A DNA stretch of 64,000 nt from the NCBI GenBank assembly GCA_964494795.1, contig CAZBSV010000181.1, positions 4,591-68,590 on the forward strand. Direction: 5' to 3'. The position numbers and the translations under genes were made by a program. The notes below the pieces were generated by a model. It made no database searches and was not told where the DNA came from. It worked only from the letters and a program-made list of their open reading frames with translations. The stretch is from an uncultured Spirochaetales bacterium. Its GTDB lineage: Bacteria > Myxococcota_A > UBA9160 > SMWR01. Below, piece after piece: positions 27,039-60,120 of the stretch. The number at the start of each line of letters is the position of its first letter. Within the stretch, counting starts at the first letter, position 1.

Positions 27039-28136
27039 TCAGCTCACCCAGGTGATGTTCGCGTCCGCGATGGCCGGGGTGCGGTCAGCGAGCACGGCGA
27101 GCTTGCGCGCGAGCGTCCCCGCGAGTTCGCGGAAGATCTGCGCGGCCAGCGAATCCGGGGCCTGCACGACGATCGGAACGCCCGAATCACCGCCCTCGAC
27201 GATCCGGGGGTCGATCGGGACCTCTCCCAGAAACGGCACCCCGAGTTCGTCCGCGGTGCGTTTCCCTCCACCTTTTCCAAACAGGTAGTACTTGCGGTCC
27301 GGCAGGTCCGGGGGCGAAAAATACGACATGTTCTCGAGGATCCCGAGCACGGGAACTTCGACTTTCTGGAACATCTTCAGGCCTTTTCGCGCGTCGATCA
27401 GCGACAGGTCGTTCGCGGTCGTCACGATCAGCGCACCGGCGAGCGGCGCCTGCTGGGTCAGCGTGAGGGCAGCGTCGCCGGTACCGGGCGGCATGTCGAT
27501 CACCAGATAGTCGAGCTCGCCCCACTCGACATCCGTGAGAAATTGTTTGACGAGCCCGTGTACCATCGGCCCGCGCCAGATCACCGGCGAATCGTCGGTC
27601 ACGAGAAATCCCATCGACATCACGCGCATTCCGTAGGCGACGTGCGGGATGATTCGCTTGCCGCGCACTTGCGGGCGGCCGCTCACTCCCGTGAGCAGCG
27701 GCAACGACGGCCCGTAGACGTCTGCATCCATCACGCCCACGCTGGCACCCAGGTCGCGCAGCGCGACCGCGAGATTGATCGCGGTCGTGCTCTTTCCCAC
27801 GCCGCCCTTCCCGGATGCGACGGCAATTGTGTTCTTGACGCCCGGGAGTACCTCGGAGGCCGAAGGGCCAAAATTCCGCCCGCGCGTATTCGCGGTCATC
27901 GTCACTTCGACTTCGCGGACGCCCTCCAGCGCGAGAACGCGCTCGCGCGCCGCGCGTTCGAATTCCGCCTTGACGGGACACGCGGGTGTCGTGAGTTCGA
28001 TCGAAAAGGAGACCTTGCCAGCGTCGATGCGAAGCTTCTTGATGAAACCGAGATCGACGATGCTCTTGTTGAAATCGGGATCCATGATCGGGCGCAGCGC
28101 GCCCAGGACATCGGTCTCGCTGACCTGCGGGGGCAT
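27039..28136 (-). CDS. apbC: Mrp/ApbC-family Fe-S cluster carrier ATPase
   Basis: Only the last 365 codons of track ORF 27039..29888 are real, starting at ATG 28136. N-terminal DUF59-like MPPQVSETDVLGALRPIMDPDFNKSIVDLGFIK, deviant Walker A VASGKGGVGKST, and DMPPGTGD. Confidence 0.92.
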   Translation of the reverse strand: MPPQVSETDVLGALRPIMDPDFNKSIVDLGFIKKLRIDAGKVSFSIELTTPACPVKAEFERAARERVLALEGVREVEVTMTANTRGRNFGPSASEVLPGVKNTIAVASGKGGVGKSTTAINLAVALRDLGASVGVMDADVYGPSLPLLTGVSGRPQVRGKRIIPHVAYGMRVMSMGFLVTDDSPVIWRGPMVHGLVKQFLTDVEWGELDYLVIDMPPGTGDAALTLTQQAPLAGALIVTTANDLSLIDARKGLKMFQKVEVPVLGILENMSYFSPPDLPDRKYYLFGKGGGKRTADELGVPFLGEVPIDPRIVEGGDSGVPIVVQAPDSLAAQIFRELAGTLARKLAVLADRTPAIADANITWVS

Positions 28137-28226
28137 GCTTCTCCTCGTGGCTGGGTGGTCGAGCCGTCGGCGTTCCGGGACCCGGGAGACTAGCTCATCC
28201 GGGCCGAGCGGATATATTGCTTCGCC

Positions 28227-30128
28227 GTGGCGGACGCATACGACGACGTGTACCGGCAATCGCTCGCGGACCCCCGGCGATTTTGGGCGGCCGCCGCGCA
28301 GGAAATCGAATGGGTGCGCCGGCCGCGGGCCGTCTTCGACGACTCGACGCCGCCGCGGGTTCGCTGGTTTCCGGGCGCGATGCTCAACAGCTGCTTCAAC
28401 GCGGTCGACCTGCACGTGCTCACGGGGCGCGGCGAGCAGGCCGCGCTGATCTACGACAGTCCGGTCACGGCGACGAGCCGCCGCTTCAGCTATCGCGAAC
28501 TGCAGCTCGAAGTCGCGCGCGCGGCGGGGGCACTCGCGGCGCTCGGCGTCGAGCGCGGCGATTGCGTGCTGATCTACATGCCGATGATCCCCGAGGCCCT
28601 GATCGGGATGCTCGCGACGGCGCGACTCGGCGCGATCCACTCGGTGGTATTCGGCGGGTTCGCGGCGAGCGAACTCGCCCAGCGCATCCAGCACGCCGCG
28701 CCGAAACTGATCCTGACGGCCAGCTGCGGGATCGAGCCCGGCCGCGTCGTCCCCTATCTGCCGTTGCTCGAGGACGCGCTCGATAAAGTCAGCAACAAAC
28801 CCGCGCATTGCGTCGTCGTCAATCGACCCGAACAGCCCGTGGCGCTGCGCGACGGGCGCGATTTGGACTGGCAGGCGATCACCCAAGGCGCGCAGCCGCA
28901 TCCCTGCGTGCCCGTCCCAGCGAGTGAACCGCTCTACATCCTCTACACGTCCGGCACCACGGGCGCACCCAAGGGCGTCGTGCGCGACAACGGCGGCCAC
29001 GCGGTCGCCCTCAAGTGGAGCATGCAGAACATCTACGCGACGCAGCCCGGCGACGTCTTCTGGGCGGCCTCCGACCTCGGCTGGGTGGTCGGCCATTCCT
29101 ACATCGTCTACGCGCCGCTGTTCATGGGCTGCACGACGGTCCTCTACGAAGGCAAGCCCGTCGGCACGCCCGACGCGAGCGCGTTCTGGCGCGTGATCTC
29201 CGAGCACCGCGTCAACACGCTCTTCACTGCGCCGACCGCCATGCGCGCGATCAAGCGCGAGGACCCCTCGGCGGAGTTGCCGAGAAGATTCGACCTCTCG
29301 AGCCTGCGCGCGCTGTTTCTCGCGGGCGAGCGAGCGGATTCCGACACCGTCGAGTGGTGCGAGCGCGCGCTCGGCGTGCCCGTGATCGACCACTGGTGGC
29401 AGACCGAAACCGGCTGGGCGATCGCCGCCAACTGCCTGGGCCTGTCGCCGCTGCCGATCAAGCGCGGCTCGCCGACGAAGGCCGTTCCGGGCTACGACGT
29501 GCGCGTGCTCGACGACGACGGACGGGAGGTCAGCGCCGGCAACATGGGCCACGTCGTCATCAAGCTGCCGCTGCCACCGGGATGCATGACGACACTCTGG
29601 CAGAACGACGAGGGTTTCGAGCGCACCTATCTCGAGCGATTTCCGGGCTACTTCCAGACCGCAGACGCGGGCTATGTCGACGCGGACGGCTACCTCTGGA
29701 TCATGGGCAGAACCGACGACGTGATCAACGTCGCCGGCCATCGCCTGTCGACCGGCGCGATCGAAGAGGCCATCGCCGGCCACCCCGACGTCGCGGAGTG
29801 CGCGGTGATCGGTGTGAAGGACGCCATCAAGGGTCAAGTGCCGCTGGCTTTGCTCGTTCTCAATGCGGGAGTGACGAGCGACCCGCAAACTCTCATAGCC
29901 GAAGTCGTCGCTCGCGTGCGCGAGCAGATCGGTCCCGTCGCGGCGCTCAAACAGGCGTGTGTGGTGCCGCGCCTTCCGAAGACCCGCTCCGGCAAGATCT
30001 TGCGCGGCACGCTGCGCAAGATCGCCGACTCCGACGCGTATCGGACCCCGCCGACGATCGACGATCCGAGCGCGCTCGACGACGCGCGCCGCGCGCTCGA
30101 GGCCCTCGGCTACGCGAAGTCAATCTGA
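28227..30128 (+). CDS. prpE: propionate--CoA ligase
   Basis: 633 aa. Long blocks match PrpE as I remember it: [103 protein letters not shown]. Confidence 0.8.
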   Translation: MADAYDDVYRQSLADPRRFWAAAAQEIEWVRRPRAVFDDSTPPRVRWFPGAMLNSCFNAVDLHVLTGRGEQAALIYDSPVTATSRRFSYRELQLEVARAAGALAALGVERGDCVLIYMPMIPEALIGMLATARLGAIHSVVFGGFAASELAQRIQHAAPKLILTASCGIEPGRVVPYLPLLEDALDKVSNKPAHCVVVNRPEQPVALRDGRDLDWQAITQGAQPHPCVPVPASEPLYILYTSGTTGAPKGVVRDNGGHAVALKWSMQNIYATQPGDVFWAASDLGWVVGHSYIVYAPLFMGCTTVLYEGKPVGTPDASAFWRVISEHRVNTLFTAPTAMRAIKREDPSAELPRRFDLSSLRALFLAGERADSDTVEWCERALGVPVIDHWWQTETGWAIAANCLGLSPLPIKRGSPTKAVPGYDVRVLDDDGREVSAGNMGHVVIKLPLPPGCMTTLWQNDEGFERTYLERFPGYFQTADAGYVDADGYLWIMGRTDDVINVAGHRLSTGAIEEAIAGHPDVAECAVIGVKDAIKGQVPLALLVLNAGVTSDPQTLIAEVVARVREQIGPVAALKQACVVPRLPKTRSGKILRGTLRKIADSDAYRTPPTIDDPSALDDARRALEALGYAKSI

Positions 30129-30180: not shown

Positions 30181-33100
30181 CTAGGGGCGCGCGCGCTGGC
30201 GGCGCCGACGCGCGAGAACCGCGAGCCCGAGCGCGCCGACACCCTGTAGGATCAGCAGATGCGGCTCGGGGACGGCCTGGAGCCGCTTCAGTTGTGCGCC
30301 TTCCACCGAAACCGTCGGCATGCTGATCAGCTGGTAGCCGCCACCGAGTGGCGAACCGAGCACACCGTAAGTCACGCCGACGAGCTCGCCCTCTTCGTTG
30401 ATCGCCCACGCCCAACAGATATCCGACACGCCGTCGTCGAAACTGCAGCGCGCCTCGCCCTCGCCGACCGGGAAGCGCTTCTCTAGCGCCAACATGCCGT
30501 CCTCGAGCTGGTTGAAGACGGCGAGACCGCTGATTCCCTCGGTGGCGTAGACGCGGTTGTCGTGGCTCGAGATCGAGACCTTGAAGAACGCGGTGTTGGG
30601 CGACGCGGCGATGCGCTGGAACTCGACCGGATTGGTTGGATCCTGGATGTCGACGACGAGGAACCCGCCGATCCAGAGCGGCACGAACGCGAGCCCGCCC
30701 GATACCTCCACGTCTTGGGGCACGGCTTCCTGATCCGAGAGCGGAATGTTCGTCGGATTGGTGTCGAGGTGCCCGAGCAGGGCTGGCGCACTCGGGTCGC
30801 TGACGTCGACGATTTGGAGTCCCTCAGTCGATGCCACGTAGGCGAGCAGACGCGGCGGACCCTCGCCCAGTGCGAGATCGAGTCCCACCTGTGAGAAATC
30901 GAGTTCGACCGAGACGGCGAGCGAGGCACCCCAATCTTCGGTGTCGCCAATGGATCCGCGCGGCTCAATCTGGCAGCTGTTCGGCACGCAATCCCCGATC
31001 ACTTCGAAGATCTGCAGCCCCTGCCAATACGAGGCCACATAGAGCATCAGATTCTGTCCGTCCGCGGACACGGAGCCCGCGGCCTCTTCGGCCAACCCGA
31101 ACGGGATCGGGATGCTGCCGCGGAAGCTGGGATTGCTCGAATCCGACACGTCGACGCCAACGACCCCGCAGGCGCCAGCGGAAATCACGGCATCGACTTC
31201 TTCACCCTCTTCGATCAGTTCGACCTCGTCGGCAAAAAAGCCGCCCGGGCACTGGCTGTTGGTGGCTGTGAAGTTGCTCATCGGCGAAGCCGCGTCGCGA
31301 TTCGACACGTTGTGGATGTCGAGTCCGCTGCGCTGCAGCGCGAGATAGGCGCGGTCCTTGGCGTCGTTGATCTTGATCGCCTCGGGCCAATTCGACACCC
31401 CGAACGGCCCGTGAATGACGGGCGTCGGAACCGCGCTGGGCGTCGCCGTGGGAGTGAGAGTAGGCGTCGCAGTCGGCGTGGGCGTCTCCGTCGGCGTGAA
31501 CGTCGGCGTCACCGTCGGAGTGAACGTGGGCGTCGCGGTCGGAGTGAACGTTGGCGTGGCAGTCGGCGTCGCGGTCGGAGTGAACGTGGGTGTCGCGGTC
31601 GGAGTGAACGTCGGCGTGGCAGTCGGAGTTGCTGTCGGCGTGGGTTCCGCGCACTCGTCGGGAACGCCGTTTTCGTCTTTGTCCGAGCTGCCGCCCGCGC
31701 CGGAAACCTCCGAGCAAGCCTTACCGAAACCGAATGGATTCACGTCGCAGGTATCGGCGATGCCATTCTCGTTGCAGTCTGCATCCCAGAACGCGAGCGC
31801 GGGACTCGAGAAAATCGTCACCTCCCCGTCGTCGAGACATGAGGCCACGATTTCGTCCACGCCGATTCCGCCGTCGCCCATGTAGGTAAAGCTCGCTTCG
31901 CCAGCCTCGTCGGTCGTCGCCGAGCCCGAATCGCCAGCGTTCGGTCCCGAGGTGACGTTGAAGCCGACTTCCCTTCCAACCACGGGGTCGACGACGTTGA
32001 TGGTCACCCTCGCGGTGACCGTGTGGCTCGCTCCGGGTGAATTCAGACCCCGATCGGGTGTCAGCGCGACCCGCTTTTCGGCGATGGGATCGAGCGCGAG
32101 TCCTCCCGGGTAGCCATACGAATCGTAAAGCGCAAAACCATACGCGTAAGCGCCAAACGGACGCGGGCAGGACAACACATGCGTACCGGCCGACACCGGC
32201 TGCCGAGCGCCAGAAAATCCACTGCTTCCAATGACCGAGAAGGGCGCTGAAAACGCAGCTCCGTCGATCGTGCAGCTGCCGACATCCAACGTGTCGACCG
32301 CAACGTTGATGTAGTTGCTGAACGCGACAGGCTCGGTCGCAGGGGTGCTGAGCGTATAGCTTCGAAGGAACTGCTCAGTCGGCGGGATCATCATCATGAA
32401 CGGATCCGAACTCACATCGTCCGCAGTCGTTCCCTTCGAGTATTGCATCACCATCACGGGTCGCGTCGCGTCGATCTTGTGGAAGGTGTCCGACGCAAGA
32501 TCAGCCTCGTAGTACGCAGCGCGACCGAGTGTCGCCACGAGAACGCCGTCGATGCGAACTTCGGTTCCGGCGTCCCGCGCGATGATGCGAAACAGATCGC
32601 CTCTGAGCCGGGTCGCGAGGGGCACCGTCAAGAAACTCACGCCCCAGGTTGCCGTCGGTGGCAATTGTTCGACAATGTGGTCACACGCGTATGCGGTTTC
32701 CGGAATATTGATGCATATCGCTCCCCCATAGACCGCCACCGGCTTGTCCGACTGAATGATCGATCCGCTCACGTCCACGGATTGAAGTTGGTAGGTTTCT
32801 AGGCGATCCAGATTGATCTGATAGGGAACTCCCGCGACTCGAATTCCGCTGGAGTTGCTCAGAGTGATCGTGACGGTGGTTTCGTCTTGCACACCGACGA
32901 TCAGCAACTCGGAATTCACGGAAGTTGCGCCGAAGCTCAGCACGAGGTGGTCCGTACCGAGTATGTCGGTCGGAAGCCCGAGGAACGCGTCCGTCGTGTA
33001 CTGGACCTGATTCAAGCCGTACACGACGACGTCCGCCTCGGCAGTCACGCGCACGCCCAGGTTCGCGAATGTGTCGGAATCGAAAGCGCGCACCTCGATC

Positions 33101-33402
33101 GGCAGCAGGACCGAAGTTACGGTACCCGGAACGACATTGAACGGAGCCGAGAATTCGAGGCCGGGAATCTCCACGGTCCCACTCGTGGCGACGGCACCCG
33201 TAATGAAGAGCACGACGTTCCCAAGGCTGCCGTAGGCATTGTCCATGAACCCGAGCACGAACTCGGTTCCCGCGTTGTCTTGCCGGGCAGTTGCGGGCGA
33301 GGTGGCCAATAACCCGGTCGCCAATGCGATCCAAGTCGCAGCGAGAGCGCGCCGAGCGCTTCTCGAACCGCGTCGACCAGGCGAATTCATCGGAGCTGCC
33401 AT
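30181..33402 (-). CDS. large PEP-CTERM-anchored surface protein: IgGFc-binding-like N-domain, Ig-like domain, Thr/Pro linker, LVIVD-repeat beta-propeller
   Basis: 1073 aa. Signal peptide [22 protein letters not shown]-terminal region [11 protein letters not shown]...DKPVAVYGG...DHIVEQLPP...[11 protein letters not shown] linker [22 protein letters not shown].... Repeats [33 protein letters not shown] and [15 protein letters not shown]-terminus [30 protein letters not shown], i.e. PEP motif, TM helix and Arg cluster. Confidence 0.8.
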
Positions 33403-33650: not shown

Positions 33651-34610
33651 TTGCCGCGGGGCGAACGCTGCTGGCCTGGAAGCTTCGGGGCGCGCGCATC
33701 GAGCAGCCGCGAAAGGATCTGTGTGTCGGACCAGACAGCGAATTCCCCCGACGCGCCGGGGTCAGAACGAGCGCTGATTTCCTCGGACCCGCCGGGGTCG
33801 AAAAAGGCGCCGATATCCCCGGGCCGGCCGGGGGGCGGCCGCCGTGCTTCGGGCAGGGCGGCGGCAGGGCTCTGGCCGGCTGGCCGGGCCCGCTGGTTGC
33901 CGCTCGCGTGTATCGGCCTCGCCGCGGCGCTCGCTAGCCTCACAGCGCTCTGGGTCTCGCGTTCGATGACCGGCGAGGCCCGCGACGGCCTCGAAATCAC
34001 CACAGCGGCAACGCGCGACGAGAAGCCCCCTCTCAGCGACGCGCAGCGCCGCGAAGCCGCGCAGAGGGCGCGATTCACAGCCGTGCGCGACGCGCTGCTT
34101 GCGCTCGATCCATCGCGTCTGCCGGGTCTTGCGTCCGAGAGGGACAGAGCTGGACTGAGTGCTCGCGTCTGGACGCTTCCCGACCCGGTCGAAAACGATG
34201 CGATTTACCGCGTGGGAATCGAGGCGGATTGCGCGTGCTCGGCGCTGTTGTTTTCCGTGAGCGCGACGAGCGACGAAATTGCGCTCCTCTACCCAAATTT
34301 GTTTCAGATCAATTCGCGGCTCGAGGCGGGCGCGCCGGTCGAGGTGCCGTCGACACCGGAGTGGACGCTGCGGGCGGTGGGTGGCGAAGGGGTGGATGTG
34401 CTCGAGCTGCTGATATTTTCGGAGCCGCCCGCATTTCCGAGTGATCGCAGCTCGAGCTGGCTCGCCGCGCCCGACCGGCCGGATCGAATCGCGGAACTCG
34501 AAGCGCTGCTCGAGGCGCTCCAAACCGGCGAGTGGGGTGTTGCGACGACGACGCTCCGGATCGTTTCGAGCGCGGTCGGGAATGCAGCGCCCCTGCGCGA
34601 ACCGCTTTGA
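33651..34610 (+). CDS. membrane-anchored DUF4384-like protein
   Basis: Low-complexity N-terminus, one TM helix (WLPLACIGLAAALASLTALWV), then IYRVGIEADCACSALLFSVSATSDEIALLYPNLFQINSRLEAGAPVEVP...GEGVDVLELLIFSEP, which fits the DUF4384 pattern (YRVGE..., LLFPN, AG..V.P). The start is uncertain: TTG 33651, or GTG 33723 after GAAAGGA. Confidence 0.6.
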   Translation: MPRGERCWPGSFGARASSSRERICVSDQTANSPDAPGSERALISSDPPGSKKAPISPGRPGGGRRASGRAAAGLWPAGRARWLPLACIGLAAALASLTALWVSRSMTGEARDGLEITTAATRDEKPPLSDAQRREAAQRARFTAVRDALLALDPSRLPGLASERDRAGLSARVWTLPDPVENDAIYRVGIEADCACSALLFSVSATSDEIALLYPNLFQINSRLEAGAPVEVPSTPEWTLRAVGGEGVDVLELLIFSEPPAFPSDRSSSWLAAPDRPDRIAELEALLEALQTGEWGVATTTLRIVSSAVGNAAPLREPL

Positions 34611-34783: not shown

Positions 34784-34898
34784 CGATTGATTGGACGATT
34801 GATTTGACGATTGACTGGGCGATTGATTTGACGATTGACTGGGCGATTGACTGGCCGATTGATTGGGCGATTGACTGGACGATTGACGATTGATTGGA
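34784..34898. repeat. 12-bp tandem repeat, about 9.6 copies (CGATTGAYTKGR), immediately upstream of the TPR/beta-barrel gene
   Basis: Direct reading gives units at 34784, 34796, 34808, ..., 34887. Each carries TTGAYT. The array ends 7 nt before ATG 34905. Confidence 0.95.
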
Positions 34899-34904
34899 GA
34901 GTGG

Positions 34905-36482
34905 ATGGAGGACGGGACCTTGCGATTGCAGTTGCACGCCGGCCAAGCCAAGCGGCCGCGCCGAGGCGGATGGCGCTACATCGCGCTCGCACTCGCGACC
35001 GCGGCGCTCGCGCAACCCGCCGCGGCGTCGGTGAAATCCGAGATTGCCTTTCACCAGGGCGTCGTCGCGTTTGGCAGCGGCGATCTGGCTGCCGCCCAGG
35101 CGGCCTTCGAAGCGGTGCTCGCCGAAGACAGCGACGACGCCGCGGCGATCCACTACCTCGGCCTGATCTCCGCGGAGCGCGGAGATTTCGAAGCGGCCGC
35201 CAGCCACTACCAGCGCGCGCTCGAACTCGATCCCGACGACGTCGACGTCCGCTTCGATCTCGGCTCCGCGCTGCTCGAATCCGGCAAGACCGCCGAAGCC
35301 AGGCGCGAATTCGACCAGGTGCTCGCCGCGGAGCCCGACCGGGCGCGCGCGCAGCTGTTTGCGGGCATCGCCGCCTACCGCGCGGGCGCCTACCGCGAGT
35401 CGCTTCCGTTTCTGGCTCGCAGCGTCGAGCTCGATGGCGAACTGCGCCCACAGGCCCTCTACTACACCGGCCTGTCGCAGGCGCACCTGCAGGATTTCCC
35501 GGCCGCCGCGGGCGCGTTCGCGCAAGTCGAGCAGTCACCGCTCTCGCCACTGTCGGACTCCGCGCGCAATCTCGCTCGCCAGGTCACGCCGAGCGCCGAG
35601 CCGGCGCGGCGCTGGACGCTCGGAGCTACCGCCGGACTGGAATACGACAGCAACCCGACGATCGCGGGAGAAACGCTCCCGCAACACCAAGACGGTCGCG
35701 GCGTCTTCCGGATCGAGGGCAGCTATCTGCTCTACGAAGACGAACGCTATTCGGCGACCGCGGGCTACGACGCCTATCTCAGCGCGCACTTCGACCAGAC
35801 CTTCGTCAACCTGATGACTCACTCGGGTTATCTCGCGACGGCCGCGGATTTCGATCCCGTCACCTTCAACCTGCGCTACGACTACGCGTACACCTGGATC
35901 GACGCGTTTGACACGAAAAAGTTTCGTGAGCTCCAGCGCGTCACGCCGTCGGTATCTTATCGCGAAGGCGACTGGGGGTTCAGCCAGGCCTACTACCAGT
36001 TCCACCACGAGGACTTCAAACGCCCGCTGCTGACGGATGCGCTGAACCGCGACGGATATCGAAACGTCGTGGGATTCAATCAATTCTTCTTTCCGGGTTC
36101 CTATCTCCCGGAATCTGTGCCAATTACCTACTTCCGGCTGGGTGCGCTCGGGGATTTCCAACGCACCGACGGCAGCGAGTTCGACTACGATTCCTGGGAG
36201 TTCTCGTTCGGCTTTGGCGCGGAACTCCCGTGGGAGATCGATCTCTCGATCCTGTATCGCTTGACGGAGCGCGACTATCGGAACCAGAGCGTGTTTTCGA
36301 CTCCGCCGAACAGCGAGATACGCGATGATCTGCAGAACCGCCTGACTCTCGAACTCAACAAGGCGATCGGCGATCACTGGCAGGTCGCGGTGGCGGGTTC
36401 GTTCACCTTTGACGACTCGAATGTCGCCCTCTATGACTACAATCGCGAGATCGTGGGTGGCTATCTGACGTATCGTTTCTAG
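34905..36482 (+). CDS. outer-membrane protein: N-terminal TPR domain plus C-terminal beta-barrel (Slam/DUF560-like architecture)
   Basis: ATG 34905 follows GGAGAG. Signal peptide WRYIALALATAALAQPAAAS. About 4-5 TPRs (AAAIHYLGLISAERGDFEAAASHYQRALELDP...). The roughly 290-aa C-terminal part has alternating amphipathic strands (WTLGATAGLEYDSNPT, FRIEGSYLLY, ATAGYDAYLSAHF, ...VAVAGSFTFDDSN) and ends with the OMP-type terminus GGYLTYRF. Confidence 0.7.
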   Translation: MEDGTLRLQLHAGQAKRPRRGGWRYIALALATAALAQPAAASVKSEIAFHQGVVAFGSGDLAAAQAAFEAVLAEDSDDAAAIHYLGLISAERGDFEAAASHYQRALELDPDDVDVRFDLGSALLESGKTAEARREFDQVLAAEPDRARAQLFAGIAAYRAGAYRESLPFLARSVELDGELRPQALYYTGLSQAHLQDFPAAAGAFAQVEQSPLSPLSDSARNLARQVTPSAEPARRWTLGATAGLEYDSNPTIAGETLPQHQDGRGVFRIEGSYLLYEDERYSATAGYDAYLSAHFDQTFVNLMTHSGYLATAADFDPVTFNLRYDYAYTWIDAFDTKKFRELQRVTPSVSYREGDWGFSQAYYQFHHEDFKRPLLTDALNRDGYRNVVGFNQFFFPGSYLPESVPITYFRLGALGDFQRTDGSEFDYDSWEFSFGFGAELPWEIDLSILYRLTERDYRNQSVFSTPPNSEIRDDLQNRLTLELNKAIGDHWQVAVAGSFTFDDSNVALYDYNREIVGGYLTYRF

Positions 36483-36519: not shown

Positions 36520-37464
36520 ATGCGGAATATGCGGACTGGAACTTCTGAGCTGAGACGGATCTTTCTCTGCACGGCCAGCTTCGGCGCGTTCGCCTGCCTT
36601 GCGGGAAGTGCATGGGCGGCGAACGACGCGCGGCTGACAGCCGTGAAAGGGGATGCGTCGATCTCGGCTGGCGCACTCGACAGCCACAGCGAACTCGCCG
36701 ATGGCGACGATCTCGAGACCGGAGACGAGAGCGGTTGCTCGATCCTGTTGGATCAGAACGCCGTGGTGGAACTCTGCGGTCAGACCCGGATCTCGTTCGC
36801 GACCGACGAGAAGCGCGGCAACCGGATCGTGAACGTCGAATCCGGCAAGTTGCGCATGGTCGTCGAGCCGCGCTCGCCCGGCGAGCGGATCGAAATCCAC
36901 ACCCCGGCGGCAATCGCGACGATCCTCGGGACGATCATCTACATATCGGTCGACCCGATTACCGGCGAAGAGACCTTCACCTCGTCGGACAGCCGGGTCA
37001 ACATTCGCGACCGCGACGAGGTGGACTGCACGCCGATCGGGCTTCCCGCAGAAGCGGGAATACCGCGATGCGCCGAGGGCACCACGATCGGTGGCCTCGA
37101 ACAGCTCACCGTGGTGCCGGGCGAGAAGCAGCGCGACAAGAAGAGTGTCGACGAACAGGAACTCGCGCAGCTCGGCGGCTGCCTGTTCGACTTTCACGAA
37201 CTCGCGGCGCGCATCGATCGAGCGGCCCAGGAGAGCAAGTCGACCGACCGCATCGTCGCGATCGACGTTGCTGTCGCGGACCTGCCGCCGGTTTCCCTCG
37301 AAGAAGGACCGTCGATCGAAACGGAGAGCGGCGACGACCTCGACGCGGAAATCAATCCGTTCGACGACTCCAGCCAGGAAGAGCTGATCCGGGAATCGCT
37401 CGCGCCGGATACGGATATTCCCGACTGCGGCGGCGGCATTCCGGGCGAGCACTGCGACTTCTGA
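36520..37464 (+). CDS. secreted FecR-domain protein
   Basis: 314 aa. RBS GAGGAGAGAGAAA. Signal peptide FLCTASFGAFACLAGSAWA. FecR-like beta region LTAVKGDASISAGA...LADGDDLETGDESGCSILLDQNAVVELCGQTRISF...VESGKLRMVV...IHTPAAIATILGTIIYISV. Acidic C-terminal half ending CGGGIPGEHCDF. Confidence 0.7.
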   Translation: MRNMRTGTSELRRIFLCTASFGAFACLAGSAWAANDARLTAVKGDASISAGALDSHSELADGDDLETGDESGCSILLDQNAVVELCGQTRISFATDEKRGNRIVNVESGKLRMVVEPRSPGERIEIHTPAAIATILGTIIYISVDPITGEETFTSSDSRVNIRDRDEVDCTPIGLPAEAGIPRCAEGTTIGGLEQLTVVPGEKQRDKKSVDEQELAQLGGCLFDFHELAARIDRAAQESKSTDRIVAIDVAVADLPPVSLEEGPSIETESGDDLDAEINPFDDSSQEELIRESLAPDTDIPDCGGGIPGEHCDF

Positions 37465-37682: not shown

Positions 37683-40600
37683 CTACAGCACGCCCGAGAA
37701 GATGAAGTTCGCCCAGATCAGCGGTCGATGGATCCCGAGTCGCGTCTCGCTCTCGAGTTGGGCGAGCTGCGCCGCTCGCAACGCCTCTGCGCCGCGAAGT
37801 GCGTCCGGCTTCGAGTCTTCGGAGACCAGCGCCGCGTAGAAGCTCCGCATCATCCGGCTCGTCGCAGCGTCGTTGCTGCGCCACAGACTCGTGACGAGCG
37901 CCTGGGCGCCCGCGGCGCGGAACCCCCAGCGAAGCCCGAGAATCTCCTGACCCCGGAGCGCCAATCCCGTCCCGGTGTCGCAGGCCGAGAGCACGACGAG
38001 GTCGGCGGCTTCGAGGTCGAGGCCCGCGACCTCGTAGGCGGTCAAGATCCCGCTCTCCGCTTCGGACTCGACCCGTGTCGGCCGATTCGCGCCCGCGAGC
38101 ACGATCCCGGACATGAGCAGCGGATTGGGTGCGATCGGCCGCTCGCGCAGGTTTTCGCCATCAGCGGCCTGCGCGCAACCCGCGTTGCCCGCAAAATAGG
38201 CGTGCGTCGCAAAGTGGAGCAGGCGGGGCCGTGACGCGAGTTCGGCCGCGAGTCGCGGCTTGGTGACCTCGGCGCCGAGCAGCCGGCGCGGCTCCACGAG
38301 CAGCTCCGCGATGTCGTCGAGTTCGCGGCGCGTGGCCGGGAGTTCCTCGAATGCCGAAAGCTGACACGGTCCCGTGTCAGTCAGAATCACGGGGCCGCCG
38401 TTTCCTGCGCCGCCGAAGTCCGGCGCGCCCACGAGCAGCGATCGTTCGAGCGCGCTTGCACGACCCTTCTCGACCGATGCCTCTGCGAGTTCGTAGGCCG
38501 AGGTGAGATACCCGACGGTCACGCGTTCCAACAAATAGCGATTCGGGTCCGCGGGGTCGGGCAACACGCCGATCGGAATGCCCCAGAGCGAACCGTCCGG
38601 AATCACGAGCCAACGCTCGACTCCGGCGAGCGAGGCCATCAGCGGCTCGAGCACGATGCGACTGAGTTCGACTCTCGCGATCGGCTCATCCATCCGCTGG
38701 TCGCGCATCGCGGTCGCGAACTGCTCGGCGAATTGCTGCAGCTCTGCGCCGTTGCCGAGGTCGACCCGGCTCACCCGACATCCGTCAGCCCGAACGATCA
38801 GGGCCGCGTACGCGGGGGCGGTCTCGAAGGCACTGCCGCTGGAAGTCCGGTCATAGGCGATGAAATTGATCAGAGCCGCATCGGCGGGAAGGTTGCGGCA
38901 GGCGTTTTTCAAAACACTCGACGGGTCGTCGGCCGGACGCACGGCGCCTTGGGTGCCCTGCAACACCTCGAGATTCTCGATCGACGCCGCGAGCGATTTC
39001 ACGCGCTCTGCGGTGTCGGGTCCGCGACCGAGCACCGCCGCCACGTAGCGGCGCCGCAACTCGTCGAGTTCCGGCGCAAACTGGGCGTCGCTGCGCGCGA
39101 CGGCCCTTCGCGCGGCGATGCTGCGCAACACGGAATCGCGGTGCGGGAGCAGATCCAGGAACAAGATCTTCGGATCGCTGTCGCGAACGGACAACAGCGC
39201 GCCGATCACCTCGTGACTGTCCTGGGACAAGAGCGCCCGCTGGCGATCCGAAATCGCGCCGAAGGTCCGCTGGGAAAATACCAGGATCGAGCGCGAAGCC
39301 TGGGTCGATTGTTCACTCGCGACGGCGTCGTCCCCCTGCGCGAGCGCGATCTTCGCCCGGGTCGTGCGCGCGCGTGCAACCAGCGGATGCTCCGGGCCGA
39401 GGGATGCCGACAGGACTTCGATCGCGCGATCGATTTCCGACGCGGCCTGGTCGAGTTTTCCGCGTTGGGCGAGCAACTGGGCGATCGCGAGACGCGTCGG
39501 CGCGAGATCGGGATGATTGGATCCGAGCGCGCGTTGCTGCGCGGCGAGCGCCTGCTCGAGCAGCTGCTGCGCGCGATCGCCCTCGCCGAGCTCGAATTCC
39601 ATTCGCGCCTGATTGCGCACCGCCGACGCGACACCCGGGTGATCGTCTCCCAATGCCGCGCGAAGACCCGCAACCGCGGTGGCGTACTGATCGGCCGCAG
39701 CACGATCCTTCGCCGACCCCCAACGAGCGAGTGCGCGATTGGTCTGAACCGTGATGGTGTCGACGCGCTCATCTCCTCCTGGTGTATCTCGCAAGATCTC
39801 GAGCGCCGACGCGAAAGAGCGATCGGCGCTCTCCCAGTCCCCGATATCTGCCTGCAGCACGCCGATCGCGTTCTCGGTTCGCGCGGTCTCGGCGTGCTTG
39901 GGCCCGAGAACCGCACGCCGCAGCCGCAGGGTCTCGCGATACGCGGCGATCGCCGCCGGAAAGTCGCCCGCCAGCCGGTAGGCGTCGCCCTGGAGCTGCA
40001 AGACCGCCGCCGTCGAGGGGTGATCGCCGCCGTAGCTCGCGCGATGACCATCGAGTGCGTTTTCGAGATGGATCAGTGCGTCTCTAGGCGATCCCAACAG
40101 CAAATTGGTGTAGCCCAGAGTCTCCTCGTACTCGGCGCGGTCCGCAGGTCGGCTCACCGCGGACTCGAGGCGATCGAGCTGCACGGCGGCCTTTTCGAGA
40201 TCGCCAGCGTCTGCGTAGAGGCGCGCGTAGTCGATCCGATTCGCGGTGGCGCCGACCTCGGCGGCGAGCTGTTCCGCGATCGCTGCCTCCCGGATCGCCT
40301 CGTCTCGCTTGCCGAGTTGGAGCTGGATCTTCGCGAGCAGGTCGTGAAGCTTCATCCGCTCGGCGGCGCTCTCGGGCGCATCCGCGTGTTCGCTCGCGAG
40401 TAGCGCCGCTTCGAGCGCCTGGCGGTAGAGGGCGCGCTCGTAGAGTTGCAGCCCGACCGAGAGATGTTGCTCGTAGCTGATCTCGGGAAGCCGGTCGCGA
40501 TCGGCTGCAGGTGCGGGCGTGCACGCGCGCAGCGCTTTGAGCGCCCGACCGACCGCGGGATCGGTCGCGCGCTCCGACCCGCCAGCCGACTCGGGCGCCC

Positions 40601-40790
40601 GGGTCGAGCTGCCCACGTACAAGCGCACGAGTTCCGCGGTCTCGTGGTCCGCGCCGTACTCGGATTCCACGGCGGCGAGGAGTTCTCCGAGAACGGCGTT
40701 CGCGTCACCACCCGACGTGCAAAGCTCCGCGGCCCGACGCGTCAGCTCGACCAGATCCGCGGATTCCGCGTCGACGCGGAGCGGGACCAA
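37683..40790 (-). CDS. TPR-repeat CHAT-domain protein (caspase-fold peptidase family)
   Basis: 1035 aa. The N-terminal 650 aa or so are KLC-type TPRs (LGDDHPGVASAVRNQARMEFELGEGDRAQQLLEQAL, LGSNHPDLAPTRLAIAQLL, LGPEHPLVARARTT...). The C-terminal CHAT domain has a His/Cys dyad context LLHFATHAYF ... DLVVLSACDTGTG ... GAQALVTSLW. The start is uncertain (TTG 40790). Confidence 0.85.
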   Translation of the reverse strand: MVPLRVDAESADLVELTRRAAELCTSGGDANAVLGELLAAVESEYGADHETAELVRLYVGSSTRAPESAGGSERATDPAVGRALKALRACTPAPAADRDRLPEISYEQHLSVGLQLYERALYRQALEAALLASEHADAPESAAERMKLHDLLAKIQLQLGKRDEAIREAAIAEQLAAEVGATANRIDYARLYADAGDLEKAAVQLDRLESAVSRPADRAEYEETLGYTNLLLGSPRDALIHLENALDGHRASYGGDHPSTAAVLQLQGDAYRLAGDFPAAIAAYRETLRLRRAVLGPKHAETARTENAIGVLQADIGDWESADRSFASALEILRDTPGGDERVDTITVQTNRALARWGSAKDRAAADQYATAVAGLRAALGDDHPGVASAVRNQARMEFELGEGDRAQQLLEQALAAQQRALGSNHPDLAPTRLAIAQLLAQRGKLDQAASEIDRAIEVLSASLGPEHPLVARARTTRAKIALAQGDDAVASEQSTQASRSILVFSQRTFGAISDRQRALLSQDSHEVIGALLSVRDSDPKILFLDLLPHRDSVLRSIAARRAVARSDAQFAPELDELRRRYVAAVLGRGPDTAERVKSLAASIENLEVLQGTQGAVRPADDPSSVLKNACRNLPADAALINFIAYDRTSSGSAFETAPAYAALIVRADGCRVSRVDLGNGAELQQFAEQFATAMRDQRMDEPIARVELSRIVLEPLMASLAGVERWLVIPDGSLWGIPIGVLPDPADPNRYLLERVTVGYLTSAYELAEASVEKGRASALERSLLVGAPDFGGAGNGGPVILTDTGPCQLSAFEELPATRRELDDIAELLVEPRRLLGAEVTKPRLAAELASRPRLLHFATHAYFAGNAGCAQAADGENLRERPIAPNPLLMSGIVLAGANRPTRVESEAESGILTAYEVAGLDLEAADLVVLSACDTGTGLALRGQEILGLRWGFRAAGAQALVTSLWRSNDAATSRMMRSFYAALVSEDSKPDALRGAEALRAAQLAQLESETRLGIHRPLIWANFIFSGVL

Positions 40791-40834: not shown

Positions 40835-41374
40835 TTACGGCTGCGCTCCCAGGTTGATCAGTTCGACGCGTCGGTTTCGCTGCCGACCCGTCGGGTCGAC
40901 GTTGGTCGCAACCGGAGCCGACTCGCCGCGCCCGACGGTTTCCAGCCGCGCGGAGGGAACACCCGCGCCCACGAGGAAGCGCTCGACCGCTGCGGCCCGT
41001 CGCTGCGACAGCGCGTCGTTGTACTCGGCCGCGCCCGCGCTGTCCGTGTGTCCTTCGACGGAAAACCGGAAGGCGGCGAGCTCCTGCGCGGAAAGCGCGA
41101 CGCCGACGCGTTCGAGCAGCACGACGGAGTCGGACTGGAGCCGATCCGAATCGAATTCGAAGTAGACGGGAAGCCGCAACGTCGGCGGTGCACCGGGCTC
41201 GATTCTCGTGCCGCGCGCCGGAGCCAGCGCCTCGATGATGTCTTCGGTCTGGATCGACAAGGCGTCGGCCGTCGTGAGGTCGGTCACGGCCGGGGCATTT
41301 TCCTGCGAGCGTGCAAGCGTCGAAGAACCAGACAGCGCGATTGCGACCACGAGCCAGACGAAATCGAAGCGCAT
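40835..41374 (-). CDS. small OmpA-C-like (peptidoglycan-binding) periplasmic protein
   Basis: 179 aa. Signal peptide FVWLVVAIALSGSSTLARS, then an OmpA_C core: VYFEFDSDRLQSDS...FSVEGHTDSAGAAEYNDALSQRRAAAVERFLV...GRGESAPV...GRQRNRRVEL. Confidence 0.88.
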   Translation of the reverse strand: MRFDFVWLVVAIALSGSSTLARSQENAPAVTDLTTADALSIQTEDIIEALAPARGTRIEPGAPPTLRLPVYFEFDSDRLQSDSVVLLERVGVALSAQELAAFRFSVEGHTDSAGAAEYNDALSQRRAAAVERFLVGAGVPSARLETVGRGESAPVATNVDPTGRQRNRRVELINLGAQP

Positions 41375-50502: not shown

Positions 50503-50681
50503 CGCCGTTTCTCCTCCACCTCCTCCAGGCAGCTGCGGAACATCGATTCGGCGGCGCAATACCAATGCAAAGCGCGTCCGCGCCAATGAATCCGACAACC
50601 CCCGCACGCTTCGATCCGAAATCAGCTGGCCGCAATCCTAACGCGCAACCGTTACTCTTTCACGACGATCTGGACGGAAAA

Positions 50682-52277
50682 ATGCAGCAACAAGAATCCG
50701 CACCGATAGCCTGCCGGGGAAACGCTTTGACCCAATGGATGCAACGGCTGCGCGCGAAAATTCCCGCGGCGCCGGCGTACTGGTTGACGCGCTTCGCGCT
50801 GCTGCGCGCGCTCGGCTTCGTCTACCTGATCGCATTTGCTTCACTCGCCGGCCAGTTGCTGCCGCTGATCGGTTCGCAGGGTCTGTTGCCCGCCGCAAAG
50901 CTGCTGGAACTCGGCCCCGAACACACGACCCGACTCGCGGCGTTTCTCGAGTATCCCACGCTGTTCTGGTTTGGCAGCTCGGACGCGTTTCTGGTCGCCA
51001 GCTGCTGGATCGGGATCGCGCTCTCGACGCTCGTGTTACTCGGCTACGCGAACGCGATCGCAATGGCCCTCTTGTGGTGGCTCTATCTCTCCTTCGTTCA
51101 GATCGGACAGACCTGGTACGCGTTTGGCTGGGAGATCCAACTGCTCGAAACGGGTTTCCTCGCGATCTTTCTCTGCCCGCTCGTGGATGGACGGCCCTTC
51201 CCGCGCCTGGCACCGCGGGCCGTCGTGATCTGGCTGTTTCGCTGGCTGCTCTTCCGCGTGATGCTCGGTGCGGGCCTGATCAAACTCCGCGGCGACCCCT
51301 GCTGGATCGAATTCAGCTGCCTCGATTTTCATTTCGAGACCCAGCCCATTCCGCATCCCGTCAGCTGGCTCTACCACAACCTGCCGACCTGGGTTCATCG
51401 CAGCGGTGTGGCGTTCAATCACCTGGTGGAAGTCATCGCGCCGTTCTTCGTGTTCGGCCCGCGGATCGCGCGCCACAGCGCGGGCGTTCTGATAGTCGCA
51501 TTCCAGCTCGTGTTGATCTCGAGCGGAAACCTCGCGTTTCTCAATTGGATCACGCTGGTCGCCGCGCTCGCGTGCTTCGACGACAGCATCTGGAGGCGAA
51601 TGCTGCCGGCGCGCCTGGTCGGCCTTGCCGAGCGCGCCGCGGGCTCGGCGCGCGGATCTCGAGCGGGATCGGTCGCGGTCGCCGCGCTGCTCGCGGGGGT
51701 CGTCGCGCTCAGCGCGAACCCGGTCGCAAATCTGCTCTCGGATCGCCAGATCATGAACACGTCGTTCGACCGCCTCCACCTCGTCAACACCTACGGTGCG
51801 TTCGGAAGCATCGGGCGACAGCGCGACGAGTTGATCTTCGAGGGGACCCTGGATTCGGCCATTAGCGAAGACACGCTCTGGCGCGAATACGACTGGAAGT
51901 GCAAGCCGGGAGATCCGCAGAGAAGGCCGTGCCTCGTAACCCCCTACCACTATCGACTCGACTGGCTGATCTGGTTCGCCGCGATGTCGAACTACGAGCG
52001 CCACCCCTGGCTGGTTCACCTGGTCTGGAAACTGCTCCACGGCGACCCGGGCGCGCTCAGTCTGCTGGCCGGCAATCCATTCCCGGAACATCCGCCGAAA
52101 TTCGTGCGCGTCGAACTCTACCGCTACGAGTTCACCGATTGGGGAGACGCAGGCGGGGCGTGGTGGAAGCGAAGAAGGCTGCGCGAATACCTCGCGCCGC
52201 TAGCGGTCGACAACGAACGCTTCCGCGCGTACCTCGAGGCCCACGGCTGGATCGAGCGAGCGGACGGCGCGCGCTGA
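50682..52277 (+). CDS. lipase maturation factor (LMF1/DUF1222) family polytopic membrane protein
   Basis: Read in the frame of track ORF 50565..52277, with ATG 50682 preferred. LLRALGFVYLIAFASL..QLLPLIGSQGLLP, WYAFGWEIQLLETGFLAIFLCP, WLLFRVMLGAGLIKLRGDPCW, FHFETQPIP, LVNTYGAFGSI, PYHYRLDWLIWFAAM, LYRYEF. Confidence 0.75.
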   Translation: MQQQESAPIACRGNALTQWMQRLRAKIPAAPAYWLTRFALLRALGFVYLIAFASLAGQLLPLIGSQGLLPAAKLLELGPEHTTRLAAFLEYPTLFWFGSSDAFLVASCWIGIALSTLVLLGYANAIAMALLWWLYLSFVQIGQTWYAFGWEIQLLETGFLAIFLCPLVDGRPFPRLAPRAVVIWLFRWLLFRVMLGAGLIKLRGDPCWIEFSCLDFHFETQPIPHPVSWLYHNLPTWVHRSGVAFNHLVEVIAPFFVFGPRIARHSAGVLIVAFQLVLISSGNLAFLNWITLVAALACFDDSIWRRMLPARLVGLAERAAGSARGSRAGSVAVAALLAGVVALSANPVANLLSDRQIMNTSFDRLHLVNTYGAFGSIGRQRDELIFEGTLDSAISEDTLWREYDWKCKPGDPQRRPCLVTPYHYRLDWLIWFAAMSNYERHPWLVHLVWKLLHGDPGALSLLAGNPFPEHPPKFVRVELYRYEFTDWGDAGGAWWKRRRLREYLAPLAVDNERFRAYLEAHGWIERADGAR

Positions 52278-52278
52278 A

Positions 52279-53265
52279 TCAGCGGCGCGCGGAAGCCGGA
52301 GGCGCCGTGGCGTCCCCGCCCTCGGTTTTCACCGTGATCTCGAAGATCTGGACCGAGGTCGCGCCCAGCGCGTCCGAGACCGCGATTTCGATCGGATGCA
52401 CGCCGGTTTGATCGGATGTCGGCTGCCAGAAGACCCTGCCGAGCACGGAATCGACGCGCATCCCCGTCGGGCCCGTCTTGAGCGCGTAACGCAGCGGCAC
52501 GTCATTGTCGGGATCGCGCGCCTCGACCGCGTAGCTGAACCCGTCGTTGGTCCAGACGCCCTCGGGAACGGAAACGATCTCCGGATGTGCATTGGCGACG
52601 CGCACCACGACACTCGCGAGTTCGTCGCTGTTGATGGCGCCATCGCTCGCAACGGCGATCGCCTGGATTTCGTCTCCCTTGACCAGCCCGTCGGTCTCGA
52701 AGCTGTCCCCCGTGTGCGTCTGGAGCTCAGCGTTCACCCGCCAGCGGTAGGAGTACTCGACCGGATCTCCGTCGGGATCTTGGGCCTGGGCGGTCGCGAC
52801 CAGCGTTTCACCCGGCAGAACCTCGGGTTGGGGGCTGACTGCGATTCCCACCACGACCGGCCGCCGGTTCTGGATCTGCGCTCCGGCCTTTACCGCCTCG
52901 CTGGAAAGCTTGCCATCGCTGGCCTTGACTTCGACTTCGATCTGGTCGTGCTTCGTGACACTCTTCAGATCGAGGTAGGCCTCTCCGTTCGGCACGACGC
53001 GGCCCGAAATTCGCCAGGTAAAGACGAGCTCGATCGGATCGCCGTCCTTGTCCTCGACGGCCACCAGCGCGTTCACGCGATCGCCAGCGCTGGGTGTCGC
53101 CGGATCCAGGCGCACGCTCCGGATCACTGGCGCGCGGTTGGCTGCGGAAGTGGTCGGTCGGTCGACCTGGGCCGGCGCCGCGCGCACGGCCGTCTCGTCG
53201 CTTCCACCGCAGGCGAGCCCGCCCGCGACGAGCAGCGCCGTCGCAATCCATCCGATGATCCGCAT
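52279..53265 (-). CDS. lipoprotein with tandem Ig/cadherin-like repeat domains
   Basis: ATG 53265 follows GGGGAGGGG. MRIIGWIATALLVAGGLACGG (lipobox). Three or four modules of about 85 aa with D.DGDP signatures (VEDKDGDPIELVFTWRI, AQDPDGDPVEYSYRWRV, ARDPDNDVPLRYAL). Confidence 0.7.
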   Translation of the reverse strand: MRIIGWIATALLVAGGLACGGSDETAVRAAPAQVDRPTTSAANRAPVIRSVRLDPATPSAGDRVNALVAVEDKDGDPIELVFTWRISGRVVPNGEAYLDLKSVTKHDQIEVEVKASDGKLSSEAVKAGAQIQNRRPVVVGIAVSPQPEVLPGETLVATAQAQDPDGDPVEYSYRWRVNAELQTHTGDSFETDGLVKGDEIQAIAVASDGAINSDELASVVVRVANAHPEIVSVPEGVWTNDGFSYAVEARDPDNDVPLRYALKTGPTGMRVDSVLGRVFWQPTSDQTGVHPIEIAVSDALGATSVQIFEITVKTEGGDATAPPASARR

Positions 53266-53392
53266 CGCCCCTCCCCACTTCATTGCCTTCAATGCCTTCG
53301 ATGCCTTCGATGCCTGTCTCGATCTCAGCTCAACCTCGATCTCGGCTCAACCGTCGGGCGGTTCGGGGGCGATGGTTGAAGCGCGCGCTGCT

Positions 53393-54834: not shown

Positions 54835-54840
54835 CCTCGA

Positions 54841-56021: not shown

Positions 56022-56023
56022 CG

Positions 56024-59776: not shown

Positions 59777-60120
59777 TCGGTCACCTCGGGCACCTTCCGG
59801 TCCTGTCAACGGCCGGTTCGTCGCCTATCAACGACCGGTTCGTCGCACGAGACGCAGCTGAGCGCGACGAAGTCGGTCGCTCGATCCAGCGGCATCTCGA
59901 AGACGCTGTGGTGCAATTCCCTCATCGGATTTCTCGGCCAGCCACTTGAGTGAAAAACGGGCGAAGTTGATCGTGCGTAAGCGAGTCGCGCTTGAGTTGC
60001 GCGTTGCCGGTTCGGCTTCGCCGTTGCCGGTTCGGGTTCGCGATCGGGCCGCTGCGCGCGATGCTTCGCGCGGCCTGCCGCCCGCGCGCGCAAGCGTCAA
60101 CTTGCGGGTCCCGCGGGCCG

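Follow-up and report, generated by a model that had tools for sequence, protein, structure and literature searches.

The gene at positions 30181..33402 on the minus strand of a 64-kb stretch of DNA from an uncultured bacterium (contig CAZBSV010000181.1 of assembly GCA_964494795.1, positions 4,591 to 68,590; the whole stretch is referred to as the window) encodes a large modular surface protein of an ordinary kind. The protein is best explained as an exported, modular surface protein with an adhesin or recognition role, the C-terminal tail of which is probably processed by an exosortase encoded elsewhere. Its gene lies beside a conserved envelope gene cluster, and this linkage is real, lineage-restricted and facultative. 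The original prediction, made from the sequence alone, had described it as a giant PEP-CTERM protein combining an IgGFc-binding-like domain with an LVIVD beta-propeller; with 1073 amino acids, the protein is large rather than giant.

The open reading frame (ORF) is listed at exactly these coordinates, starts with ATG and is translated without any internal stop codon. Its GC content at the three codon positions (0.62/0.51/0.76) is gene-like and resembles that of other genes of the window, which has a GC content of 65%, and an identical protein (P0001) is present in NCBI on an 82,261-bp contig. From the N- to the C-terminus the protein consists of a signal peptide, an IgGFc_binding module, an Ig-like domain, a pair of Cys/Asp motifs, a Thr/Pro linker, the LVIVD propeller and a tail formed by VPEP, a transmembrane (TM) segment and RRRRQR. 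The signal peptide (residues 1-39, 33286..33402, minus strand) was assigned by inspection from its RR-rich n-region, its hydrophobic core and the end LLATSPATA ahead of RQ; the N-termini of relatives show the same layout and their mature start aligns at DNAGTEF (pattern D-N-x-G-T-E-F), which supports the signal peptide that had been predicted. Export and surface association of the protein are very likely. The spacer 5' of the gene shows no Rfam match, and a single sigma-70-like site, located some 85 nt 5' of the start codon, is not above chance expectation.

The tripartite tail (residues 1037-1073, 30181..30294 including the stop codon, minus strand) contains VPEP at residues 1044-1047, followed by 17 hydrophobic residues and by RRRRQRARP at the extreme C-terminus. 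A Pro-Glu-Pro motif near the C-terminus, a TM segment with an Arg cluster and, by inspection, a signal peptide are all present. C-terminal sorting domains are as a rule built of a motif, a TM segment and an Arg cluster, and their lineage-specific forms are divergent and call for custom models (Haft, 10.1101/2023.06.07.544157). P0002, P0122-P0126, P0141 and a protein of locus L038 carry nearly the same tail, although the heads are unlike, comprising DUF4215 repeats in P0122, Laminin_G_3 in P0125 and NIDO in the L038 protein. The PEP motif and the spacing between motif and helix are kept among the relatives, and the helix start H-L-L-I-L-Q-G, which is unusual, is common to the tail in the window and to those of close relatives. 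Like tails are also carried by propeller-less proteins of related contigs, i.e., P0005/P0006 (LPEP…RLRRR) and p207 of L022 (VPEP…). In NCBIfam the tail gives weak matches (E ~0.009) to the ends of models for PEP-CTERM families, and in the distant propeller relative P0187 the PEP tail passes TIGR02595 (18.5 bits vs. a cutoff of 16). Based on the tripartite architecture, its conservation and the TIGR02595-positive distant relative, the tail is probably a lineage-divergent PEP-CTERM-type signal.

The N-terminal head starts with an IgGFc_binding-type module (residues 40-445, 32068..33285, minus strand), for which the Pfam family PF17517 gives 240.6 bits against a cutoff of 25.6 (E 2.9e-71, profile positions 1-297 of 297), which bears out the predicted IgGFc-binding-like domain. 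It is followed by an Ig-like, Big_1-like beta-sandwich (residues 446-545, 31768..32067, minus strand). This domain had also been predicted and is recovered in the AlphaFold2 (AF2) model, which places a confident beta-sandwich at model residues 405-500, though the protein does not reach the cutoff of Big_1 (PF02369, 17.7 vs. 34.9 bits); in the precomputed annotations, Big_1 is assigned to most homologues of the combined module. The AF2 model of residues 40-560, based on an alignment of 57 sequences, is all-beta (pLDDT 89.3, pTM 0.81), and four repeats, each containing one long strand, precede the Ig-like sandwich. A Foldseek comparison of this model with the PDB yielded generic beta-sandwich strings only, with TM-scores of at most 0.2 and no specific fold match. 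Alpha-2-macroglobulins are among these matches; a kinship with protease traps was not accepted at such scores, as the similarity is that of generic multi-sandwich proteins. A sequence search of the PDB gave matches confined to the low-complexity linker, and a literature search on bacterial IgGFc_binding domains retrieved nothing relevant. No solved structure corresponds to the head, and the family name, taken from human FCGBP, is uninformative on its function here; binding of IgG Fc would be implausible for an environmental bacterium. The head is followed by the pair of Cys/Asp motifs (residues 546-585, 31648..31767, minus strand), which are present as predicted and are kept in P0002, P0003, P0005-P0011 and the L032 protein. 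They are probably Ca2+-binding loops held by disulfides, the assignment of Ca2+ following from loops of the DxNxNG type.

The Thr/Pro linker (residues 586-661, 31420..31647, minus strand) has the form (x-T-P-T)n and consists to 74% of Thr and Pro. It had been described as a perfect repeat of 70 residues; the linker exists, but it is 76 residues long, x varies between A, F, V and E, and the underlying DNA tandem repeat (period 60, 2.6 copies) has 87% matches. Thr/Ser-rich low-complexity regions are often present in PEP-CTERM proteins (Haft, 10.1101/2023.06.07.544157). The propeller (residues 662-1036, 30295..31419, minus strand) scores 63.6 bits with PF08309 (cutoff 20.2), two stretches passing by themselves. 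The AF2 model of residues 661-1073 (pLDDT 89.0, pTM 0.86) contains about 28 strands, which fits a seven-bladed propeller, followed by a disordered stretch with the PEP motif and by a terminal helix. The LVIVD propeller of the original prediction is thereby confirmed by both the profile and the model. Its fold matches in the PDB are generic seven-bladed propellers at TM-scores of 0.55-0.6, and this fold comparison gave generic folds only and no enzymatic signal.

Both halves of the protein recur with other surface anchors, and for this reason they are regarded as surface-display modules with a choice of anchor, which judging from the sequences can be PEP-like, Cys-type, dockerin-like, of the type IX secretion system (T9SS) or LPXTG. 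The IgGFc_binding plus Ig-like module is present in more than 600 proteins from many phyla; in a scan of GTDB representatives the best match to the protein is 47% identical and covers the N-terminal module only. Among its homologues the module is combined with dockerin-like double EF-hand ends in proteins of about 600 residues (including Nitrotoga, Hahella and Methylobacter names), with T9SS sorting domains in Bacteroidota and Ignavibacteria and with a plain TM segment plus RRR in a metagenome-assembled genome (MAG) of the Dehalococcoidia, and further homologues are annotated with LPXTG, DUF11 or RTX. A search with the propeller gave 14,222 matches at E <= 1e-3 among 1.84 billion representatives; the heads on these relatives include DUF4215 repeats, Laminin_G_3, NIDO and VWA, and one of them (P0204) has a dockerin-like end. 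The combination of IgGFc_binding and LVIVD occurs in one small clade only (P0001, P0002, P0003, P0007, P0009 and P0011). Pairs of TSP3/dockerin-like EF-hands followed by "PPGPSG…" form the ends of P0003, P0009, P0011 and P0204, besides those of proteins of the loci L023, L027 and L049, and "LACAGxxPCP" stands at the very end of all "PPGPSG…" proteins but the one of L027. Another tail occurs among propeller relatives found with residues 661-1036 (P0127, P0128, P0152, P0171, P0182, P0184, P0205 and P0241). It is built of C-G-L-x-x-E, about 12 hydrophobic residues often including Pro, and an Arg cluster, i.e., again a TM segment plus RRR. Six of these tails (P0128, P0152, P0171, P0184, P0205 and P0241) have no match at E <= 1 to NCBIfam sorting-signal models including MYXO-CTERM (TIGR03901), and the CGLxxE tail may be an unmodelled, lineage-specific sorting signal of the Cys type.

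The gene is positioned in a variable slot between the acetyl-CoA synthetase gene (acs) and an envelope gene cluster characterised by a CHAT protease, a FecR protein and an outer-membrane barrel protein. The gene order including the flanking acs is the same in L021, which encodes P0002 (73% identical), and in L023, which encodes P0009. A metagenome scan with an alignment of the barrel protein gave 44 loci. Each component was mapped in all loci by local hidden Markov models (HMMs), and in 23 loci the region from acs to the cluster was readable and the slot classifiable. A divergent LVIVD-propeller gene occupies the slot in 10 of the 23 loci (the window, L021, L023, L027, L032, L038, L041, L045, L046 and L049). 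In the other 13 the slot is empty (L026, L028, L042, L047, L048, L051, L053, L054, L056, L058, L060, L062 and L063) and acs adjoins the cluster directly, with acs or a sensor gene next to the barrel gene. The divergent arrangement recurs over a range of 46-80% identity of the barrel proteins with a constant orientation. In a neighbour-joining tree of the barrel proteins, loci with and without the propeller gene are interspersed over several branches, which implies that the linkage is old and that several losses or gains took place. The relationship with the CHAT/FecR cluster suggested by the original prediction is thus partly supported, by a recurring divergent arrangement; the linkage is facultative, as no such protein is present in 13 of the 23 loci. 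The slot proteins differ in their heads: the L038 protein has a NIDO head on the same propeller, the L032 protein four PPC-like repeats ahead of the IgGFc_binding module, the L041 protein Ig repeats, those of L046 and L049 another head, and the L027 protein is LVIVD-only. The part that the slot proteins have in common is the LVIVD propeller; the IgGFc_binding head and the PEP tail vary.

A paralogous protein with the IgGFc_binding module (head 65-67% identical, PEP-like tail, no propeller) is encoded in a separate operon. Its gene is translationally coupled to the gene of a protein with a two-partner secretion (TPS) domain, and a CHAT gene comes next. In L022 and L024 a ShlB-type transporter is encoded on the opposite strand of these loci, and L020 stops inside the CHAT gene. 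The L022 locus, a second type of CHAT cluster, encodes in this order DUF928, a small PEP-tailed protein, a choice-of-anchor W plus TSP3 protein, the 1179-residue TPS-domain protein, the PEP-tailed protein with the IgGFc_binding module, CHAT and the ShlB-type TpsB transporter; the CHAT protein of L024, from the same type of cluster, has a signal peptide. Among 106 neighbouring ORFs of 18 distant relatives with the IgGFc_binding module, CHAT, FecR, TPS and ShlB do not recur, and the neighbourhoods of P0014 and P0016 are likewise without them.

The slot is bordered by acs (28227..30128, plus strand, with AMP-binding and ACAS_N domains), which is convergent with the propeller protein gene. On the other side, the gene at 33651..34610 (plus strand) encodes a membrane protein with a TM segment at about residues 82-103 and a DUF4384-like C-terminal domain (PF14326, 21.4 bits vs. 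a cutoff of 27), without a kinase or cyclase head. Over residues 83-305 it is homologous to the C-termini of a cyclase in L026 (8e-44) and of Ser/Thr kinases in L028 and L027 (8e-30 and 1e-24), which are encoded at the same position of their loci. The ORF has no counterpart in L021 or L023, and the doubt that this raised was dropped after these matches: it is a real gene, a headless version of the sensor, the DUF4384-like domain of which would be periplasmic. The first ~80 codons of the ORF are of low complexity, and the true start may be internal.

Next in the cluster is a Slam-like outer-membrane protein (34890..36482, plus strand) with a signal peptide, TPRs and a C-terminal beta-barrel-like region ending in YLTYRF. 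It stays below the cutoffs of both Slam models (TPR_Slam, PF24575, 30.6 vs. 35.2; SlipAM, PF04575, 19.4 vs. 22), and in its family of 76 proteins, mostly from Myxococcota MAGs, precomputed Pfam annotation assigns PF24575 to most members and PF04575 to a few. A match of its TPRs to PrsT, the TPR protein of the XrtA/PEP-CTERM system (57 bits vs. 312), is generic and was rejected as evidence of an exosortase, and matches of cluster proteins to Csx29, TraB and TraC were set aside as generic domain similarity. A secreted protein with a FecR domain (36520..37464, plus strand; PF04773, E 1.6e-8; signal peptide by inspection) follows, and its orthologues are present in other loci of the cluster. The FecR proteins of the window, of L023 (6316-7191, minus strand) and of L028 (11619-12524, plus strand) share the C-terminus PGEHC(D/S)F, PGEHCDF in the window, which suggests a recognition or secretion motif. 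On the minus strand, a TPR-CHAT caspase-like protease (37683..40790; PF12770, E 2e-58) contains the His and Cys motifs HFATHAYF and LSACDTG and has orthologues in L027 and L028 (E ~1e-273). The CHAT ORF of the window as called is without a signal peptide, its earliest possible start lying 45 nt past the stop codon of the OmpA gene; the N-termini of the L023 and L028 orthologues are clearly hydrophobic, and that of the L027 orthologue is not. Directly upstream of CHAT, an OmpA-domain protein with a signal peptide is encoded (40835..41374, minus strand; PF00691, E 1.4e-21), and this adjacency is also found in L027, L028, L036, L038, L040 and L042. On the long contigs with the barrel family, barrel, FecR, CHAT and OmpA form the conserved core, and a Ser/Thr kinase or nucleotide cyclase is often encoded upstream of the barrel gene. 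As searches with single sequences by phmmer were too insensitive (the CHAT protein of the window missed the one of L022), precomputed Pfam contexts and local HMMs were used for these comparisons. A literature search on clusters of CHAT with FecR or DUF928 yielded nothing relevant.

Processing of the tail by an exosortase has to be weighed against several observations that speak against it. Failure of the tail against the PEP-CTERM models had been set beforehand as a result that would count against the original prediction, and the tail gives 14.4 bits with PF07589 (cutoff 20.7, E 0.041, residues 1043-1067 of 1073) and no match to TIGR02595 (cutoff 16) at E <= 1. VPEP, TM segment and RRRRQR are all there, but the tail is not "textbook" and membership of the curated PEP-CTERM family is not demonstrated. 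The tails of the closest relatives are also below the threshold (11.8-16.2 bits) or unreported. The E-value of 0.041 is scaled to a set of 24,736 models; if PF07589 is taken as the single model tested, the match is far from random, and it lies at the end of the protein. The tail is the only PEP-like tail encoded in the window. In the slot proteins of L023, L027 and L049 a dockerin-like module plus "PPGPSG…", which runs on as "LACAGxxPCP" in L023 and L049, replaces the membrane tail; surface display in slot proteins is therefore independent of a PEP-type tail. Fold searches and literature give no ligand or binding activity. Finally, a Pfam scan of about 55 gene-like ORFs covering the window, together with a hydropathy and TM scan, detected no exosortase or exopolysaccharide (EPS) gene, the multi-pass membrane proteins being CvpA, NhaA and LMF1 only. 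This agrees with the original prediction, which had placed the sorting machinery elsewhere; any such machinery must lie outside the window. The absence carries little weight and is expected, because exosortases usually belong to distant EPS loci. A location in EPS loci is frequent, and proteomes with at least 20 PEP-CTERM proteins, most of them otherwise dissimilar, are common (Haft, 10.1101/2023.06.07.544157). The sub-cutoff tail and the missing exosortase would also fit a mere stop-transfer anchor, by which the protein would stay in the inner membrane with a periplasmic ectodomain and without sortase-type processing, as would the relatives with the IgGFc_binding module that end in a TM segment plus RRR without a PEP motif (P0097, L002). 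This is unlikely, since the relatives have preserved both the PEP motif and its distance from the helix, bona fide sorting signals (T9SS, LPXTG, TIGR02595-positive) are found on the same modules elsewhere, and a 76-residue Thr/Pro stalk on a beta-rich ectodomain of about 1000 residues would be typical of surface display. It is very improbable that the propeller is a surface-displayed enzyme such as a hydrolase, as the term "enzyme-like propeller" in the original prediction implied. A phosphotriesterase propeller of Sphingobium is among the fold matches (15-16% identity), yet with a TM-score of 0.47 vs. 0.55-0.6 it is no better than dozens of non-enzymatic propellers of the WD40 type, catalytic families gave no match in Pfam or NCBIfam, and the invariant or nearly invariant columns are mostly structural Gly, Pro, Ala and Trp residues plus a conserved P-Q-D.

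The remaining alternatives concern the neighbouring cluster. The protein could be its partner or cargo, so that both form one system in which the tail is secondary, the Slam-like TPR-barrel exporting or assembling the protein and TPR-CHAT, FecR and the DUF4384-like sensor processing or sensing it. This proposal is compatible with the exosortase-processed surface protein favoured here; it is a possibility, though a doubtful one. It draws on the constant one-sided placement of a divergent LVIVD gene at 10 of 23 loci across 46-80% barrel identity, on the distribution of such loci over several branches of the barrel tree, which points to an old linkage, on the paralogue with the IgGFc_binding module in a TPS operon beside CHAT, with ShlB in L022 and L024, and on the signal peptides of some CHAT orthologues, which suggest an envelope location. 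It is weakened by the 13 loci in which the full cluster does without a propeller protein, by the conservation of the flanking acs genes, due to which the synteny is partly plain inheritance, by the lack of recurring CHAT, FecR, TPS or ShlB neighbours among the distant relatives, by the missing signal peptide of the CHAT ORF in the window as called and by the sub-cutoff Slam scores of the barrel protein. Known Slam cargo consists of lipoproteins or of hemophores with a C-terminal barrel domain, and the protein of the window is unlike these. Still more tentatively, the LVIVD proteins with swappable heads and anchors may be the variable outward component of a system, so far undescribed, that spans the envelope in an uncultured lineage of Myxococcota and the other parts of which may be the kinase- or cyclase-fused DUF4384-like sensor, the Slam-like barrel, FecR, TPR-CHAT and an OmpA-type anchor. 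If this was true, the surface protein would be engaged by, for example, a neighbouring cell, prey or matrix, and the cluster would relay this event or process it by proteolysis. By analogy, the protein might also act as a polymorphic receptor for cell-cell recognition, its variable head, borne on a stalk and anchored through the C-terminal sorting tag, discriminating kin or partners. The model for this is TraA of Myxococcus, a surface receptor that is polymorphic, bears a tripartite sorting tag at its C-terminus and has TraB as its cohort protein (PMC11980579). The shuffling of heads at one syntenic locus (IgGFc_binding, NIDO, PPC repeats, Ig repeats and others) with propeller and position kept, the Myxococcota-like host and the OmpA-domain gene of the cluster would fit such a role. 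However, there is no sequence kinship, the TraB and TraC models match OmpA and TPR domains only generically and far below the cutoff, and the head variation observed is one between distinct genomes, so that a TraA-like function is improbable.

According to the favoured explanation, processing of the tail by an exosortase encoded elsewhere, the protein would leave the cytoplasm through Sec and stay for a time in the inner membrane, retained by its C-terminal helix, until an exosortase-type enzyme, the gene of which would lie elsewhere in the genome, cleaves the tail at or near the PEP motif. In its mature form it would then be fixed to the cell surface or the matrix, the propeller lying proximally and a stalk carrying the IgGFc-type head at the distal end. 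The Thr/Pro stalk would be extended and probably O-glycosylated, and the head with its Ig-like domain is the likely ligand-binding part of what would be an adhesin or a recognition-type protein. The protein is one variant of a module-shuffled family that uses the slot between acs and the envelope cluster.

The remainder of the window is consistent with a Gram-negative host. It contains the housekeeping genes for AlaRS, IspG, BamD, PrsA, L25, PdxS/T, S6, S18, DnaB, a Mur ligase, ThiD, ThiE, Dus and MoeA, as well as genes for a porin, LMF1, a type IV minor-pilin operon, a PilZ protein and a protoglobin kinase. The AlaRS shares 84-86% identity with proteins from MAGs that carry the label Myxococcota or Deltaproteobacteria, and this similarity together with the BamD, OmpA and porin genes indicates that the host is Gram-negative and Myxococcota-like. 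The minor-pilin operon (52279-59809, minus strand) encodes prepilin-type N_methyl proteins, PilW and PilX and also a 1261-residue PilY1-like protein and a 337-residue Ig-domain protein; it is followed by a gene for a triple-PilZ protein (59992-62100, plus strand). IspG (5008-7026, plus strand) is of the long form with 672 residues and a GcpE match in two stretches, and the LMF1 gene (50565-52277, plus strand) encodes a bacterial homologue of the eukaryotic lipase maturation factor. A mechanically called ORF of 949 residues (27039-29888, minus strand) is mostly spurious. Its real part is formed by the C-terminal ~360 residues, a Mrp/ParA iron-sulfur carrier (~27039-28130; the L026 orthologue has 369 residues), and the rest overlaps acs on the opposite strand.

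As originally stated the finding matters little, as PEP-CTERM-type proteins are numerous, modular and normally encoded far from their exosortase. The recognition of the IgGFc_binding plus Ig-like module and of the LVIVD propeller as choice-of-anchor modules across phyla aids the annotation of hundreds of hypothetical proteins. Tails of the type found in the window and the CGLxxE tail escape the curated models, so that lineage-specific models are needed for Myxococcota-like MAGs. The conserved nameless cluster with its facultative, head-shuffled surface protein constitutes a defined target for work on caspase-like proteases and on surface recognition in myxobacteria.

In comparison with known systems, the protein shares with the PEP-CTERM substrates (PF07589, TIGR02595), such as the floc-forming PepA of Zoogloea resiniphila, the signal peptide, the tail of PEP, TM segment and Arg cluster, a Thr/Pro-rich low-complexity stretch and a gene remote from an exosortase. 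It differs from them in that its tail is below both generic models and in that its ectodomain is large and well folded and not mostly of low complexity. The full-length significant match to PF17517, a family that owes its name to the N-terminal domain of human FCGBP, here belongs to the head of a surface protein of an environmental bacterium. The likeness to the TraA/TraB system of Myxococcus xanthus comprises the lineage, a signal peptide, a variable head, a Cys-containing region, a tripartite tag and an OmpA gene nearby; in contrast to TraA, the protein is non-homologous, has a PEP-type tag instead of the Cys-containing MYXO-CTERM tag and contains a propeller. The barrel neighbour resembles the Slam/DUF560 translocons in its periplasmic TPRs and its C-terminal barrel-like region, both models matching in the right order, but these matches are below the cutoffs and its neighbours are FecR, CHAT, OmpA and the DUF4384-like sensor and not TonB receptors with lipoprotein cargo. 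LVIVD-propeller regions align weakly to the choice-of-anchor B family (TIGR04312), but the protein reaches 15.7 bits where 100 are required and falls outside that family, with which it shares only the behaviour: like Haft's choice-of-anchor domains, its modules are combined with PEP-like, Cys-type, dockerin-like, T9SS, LPXTG and plain TM ends.

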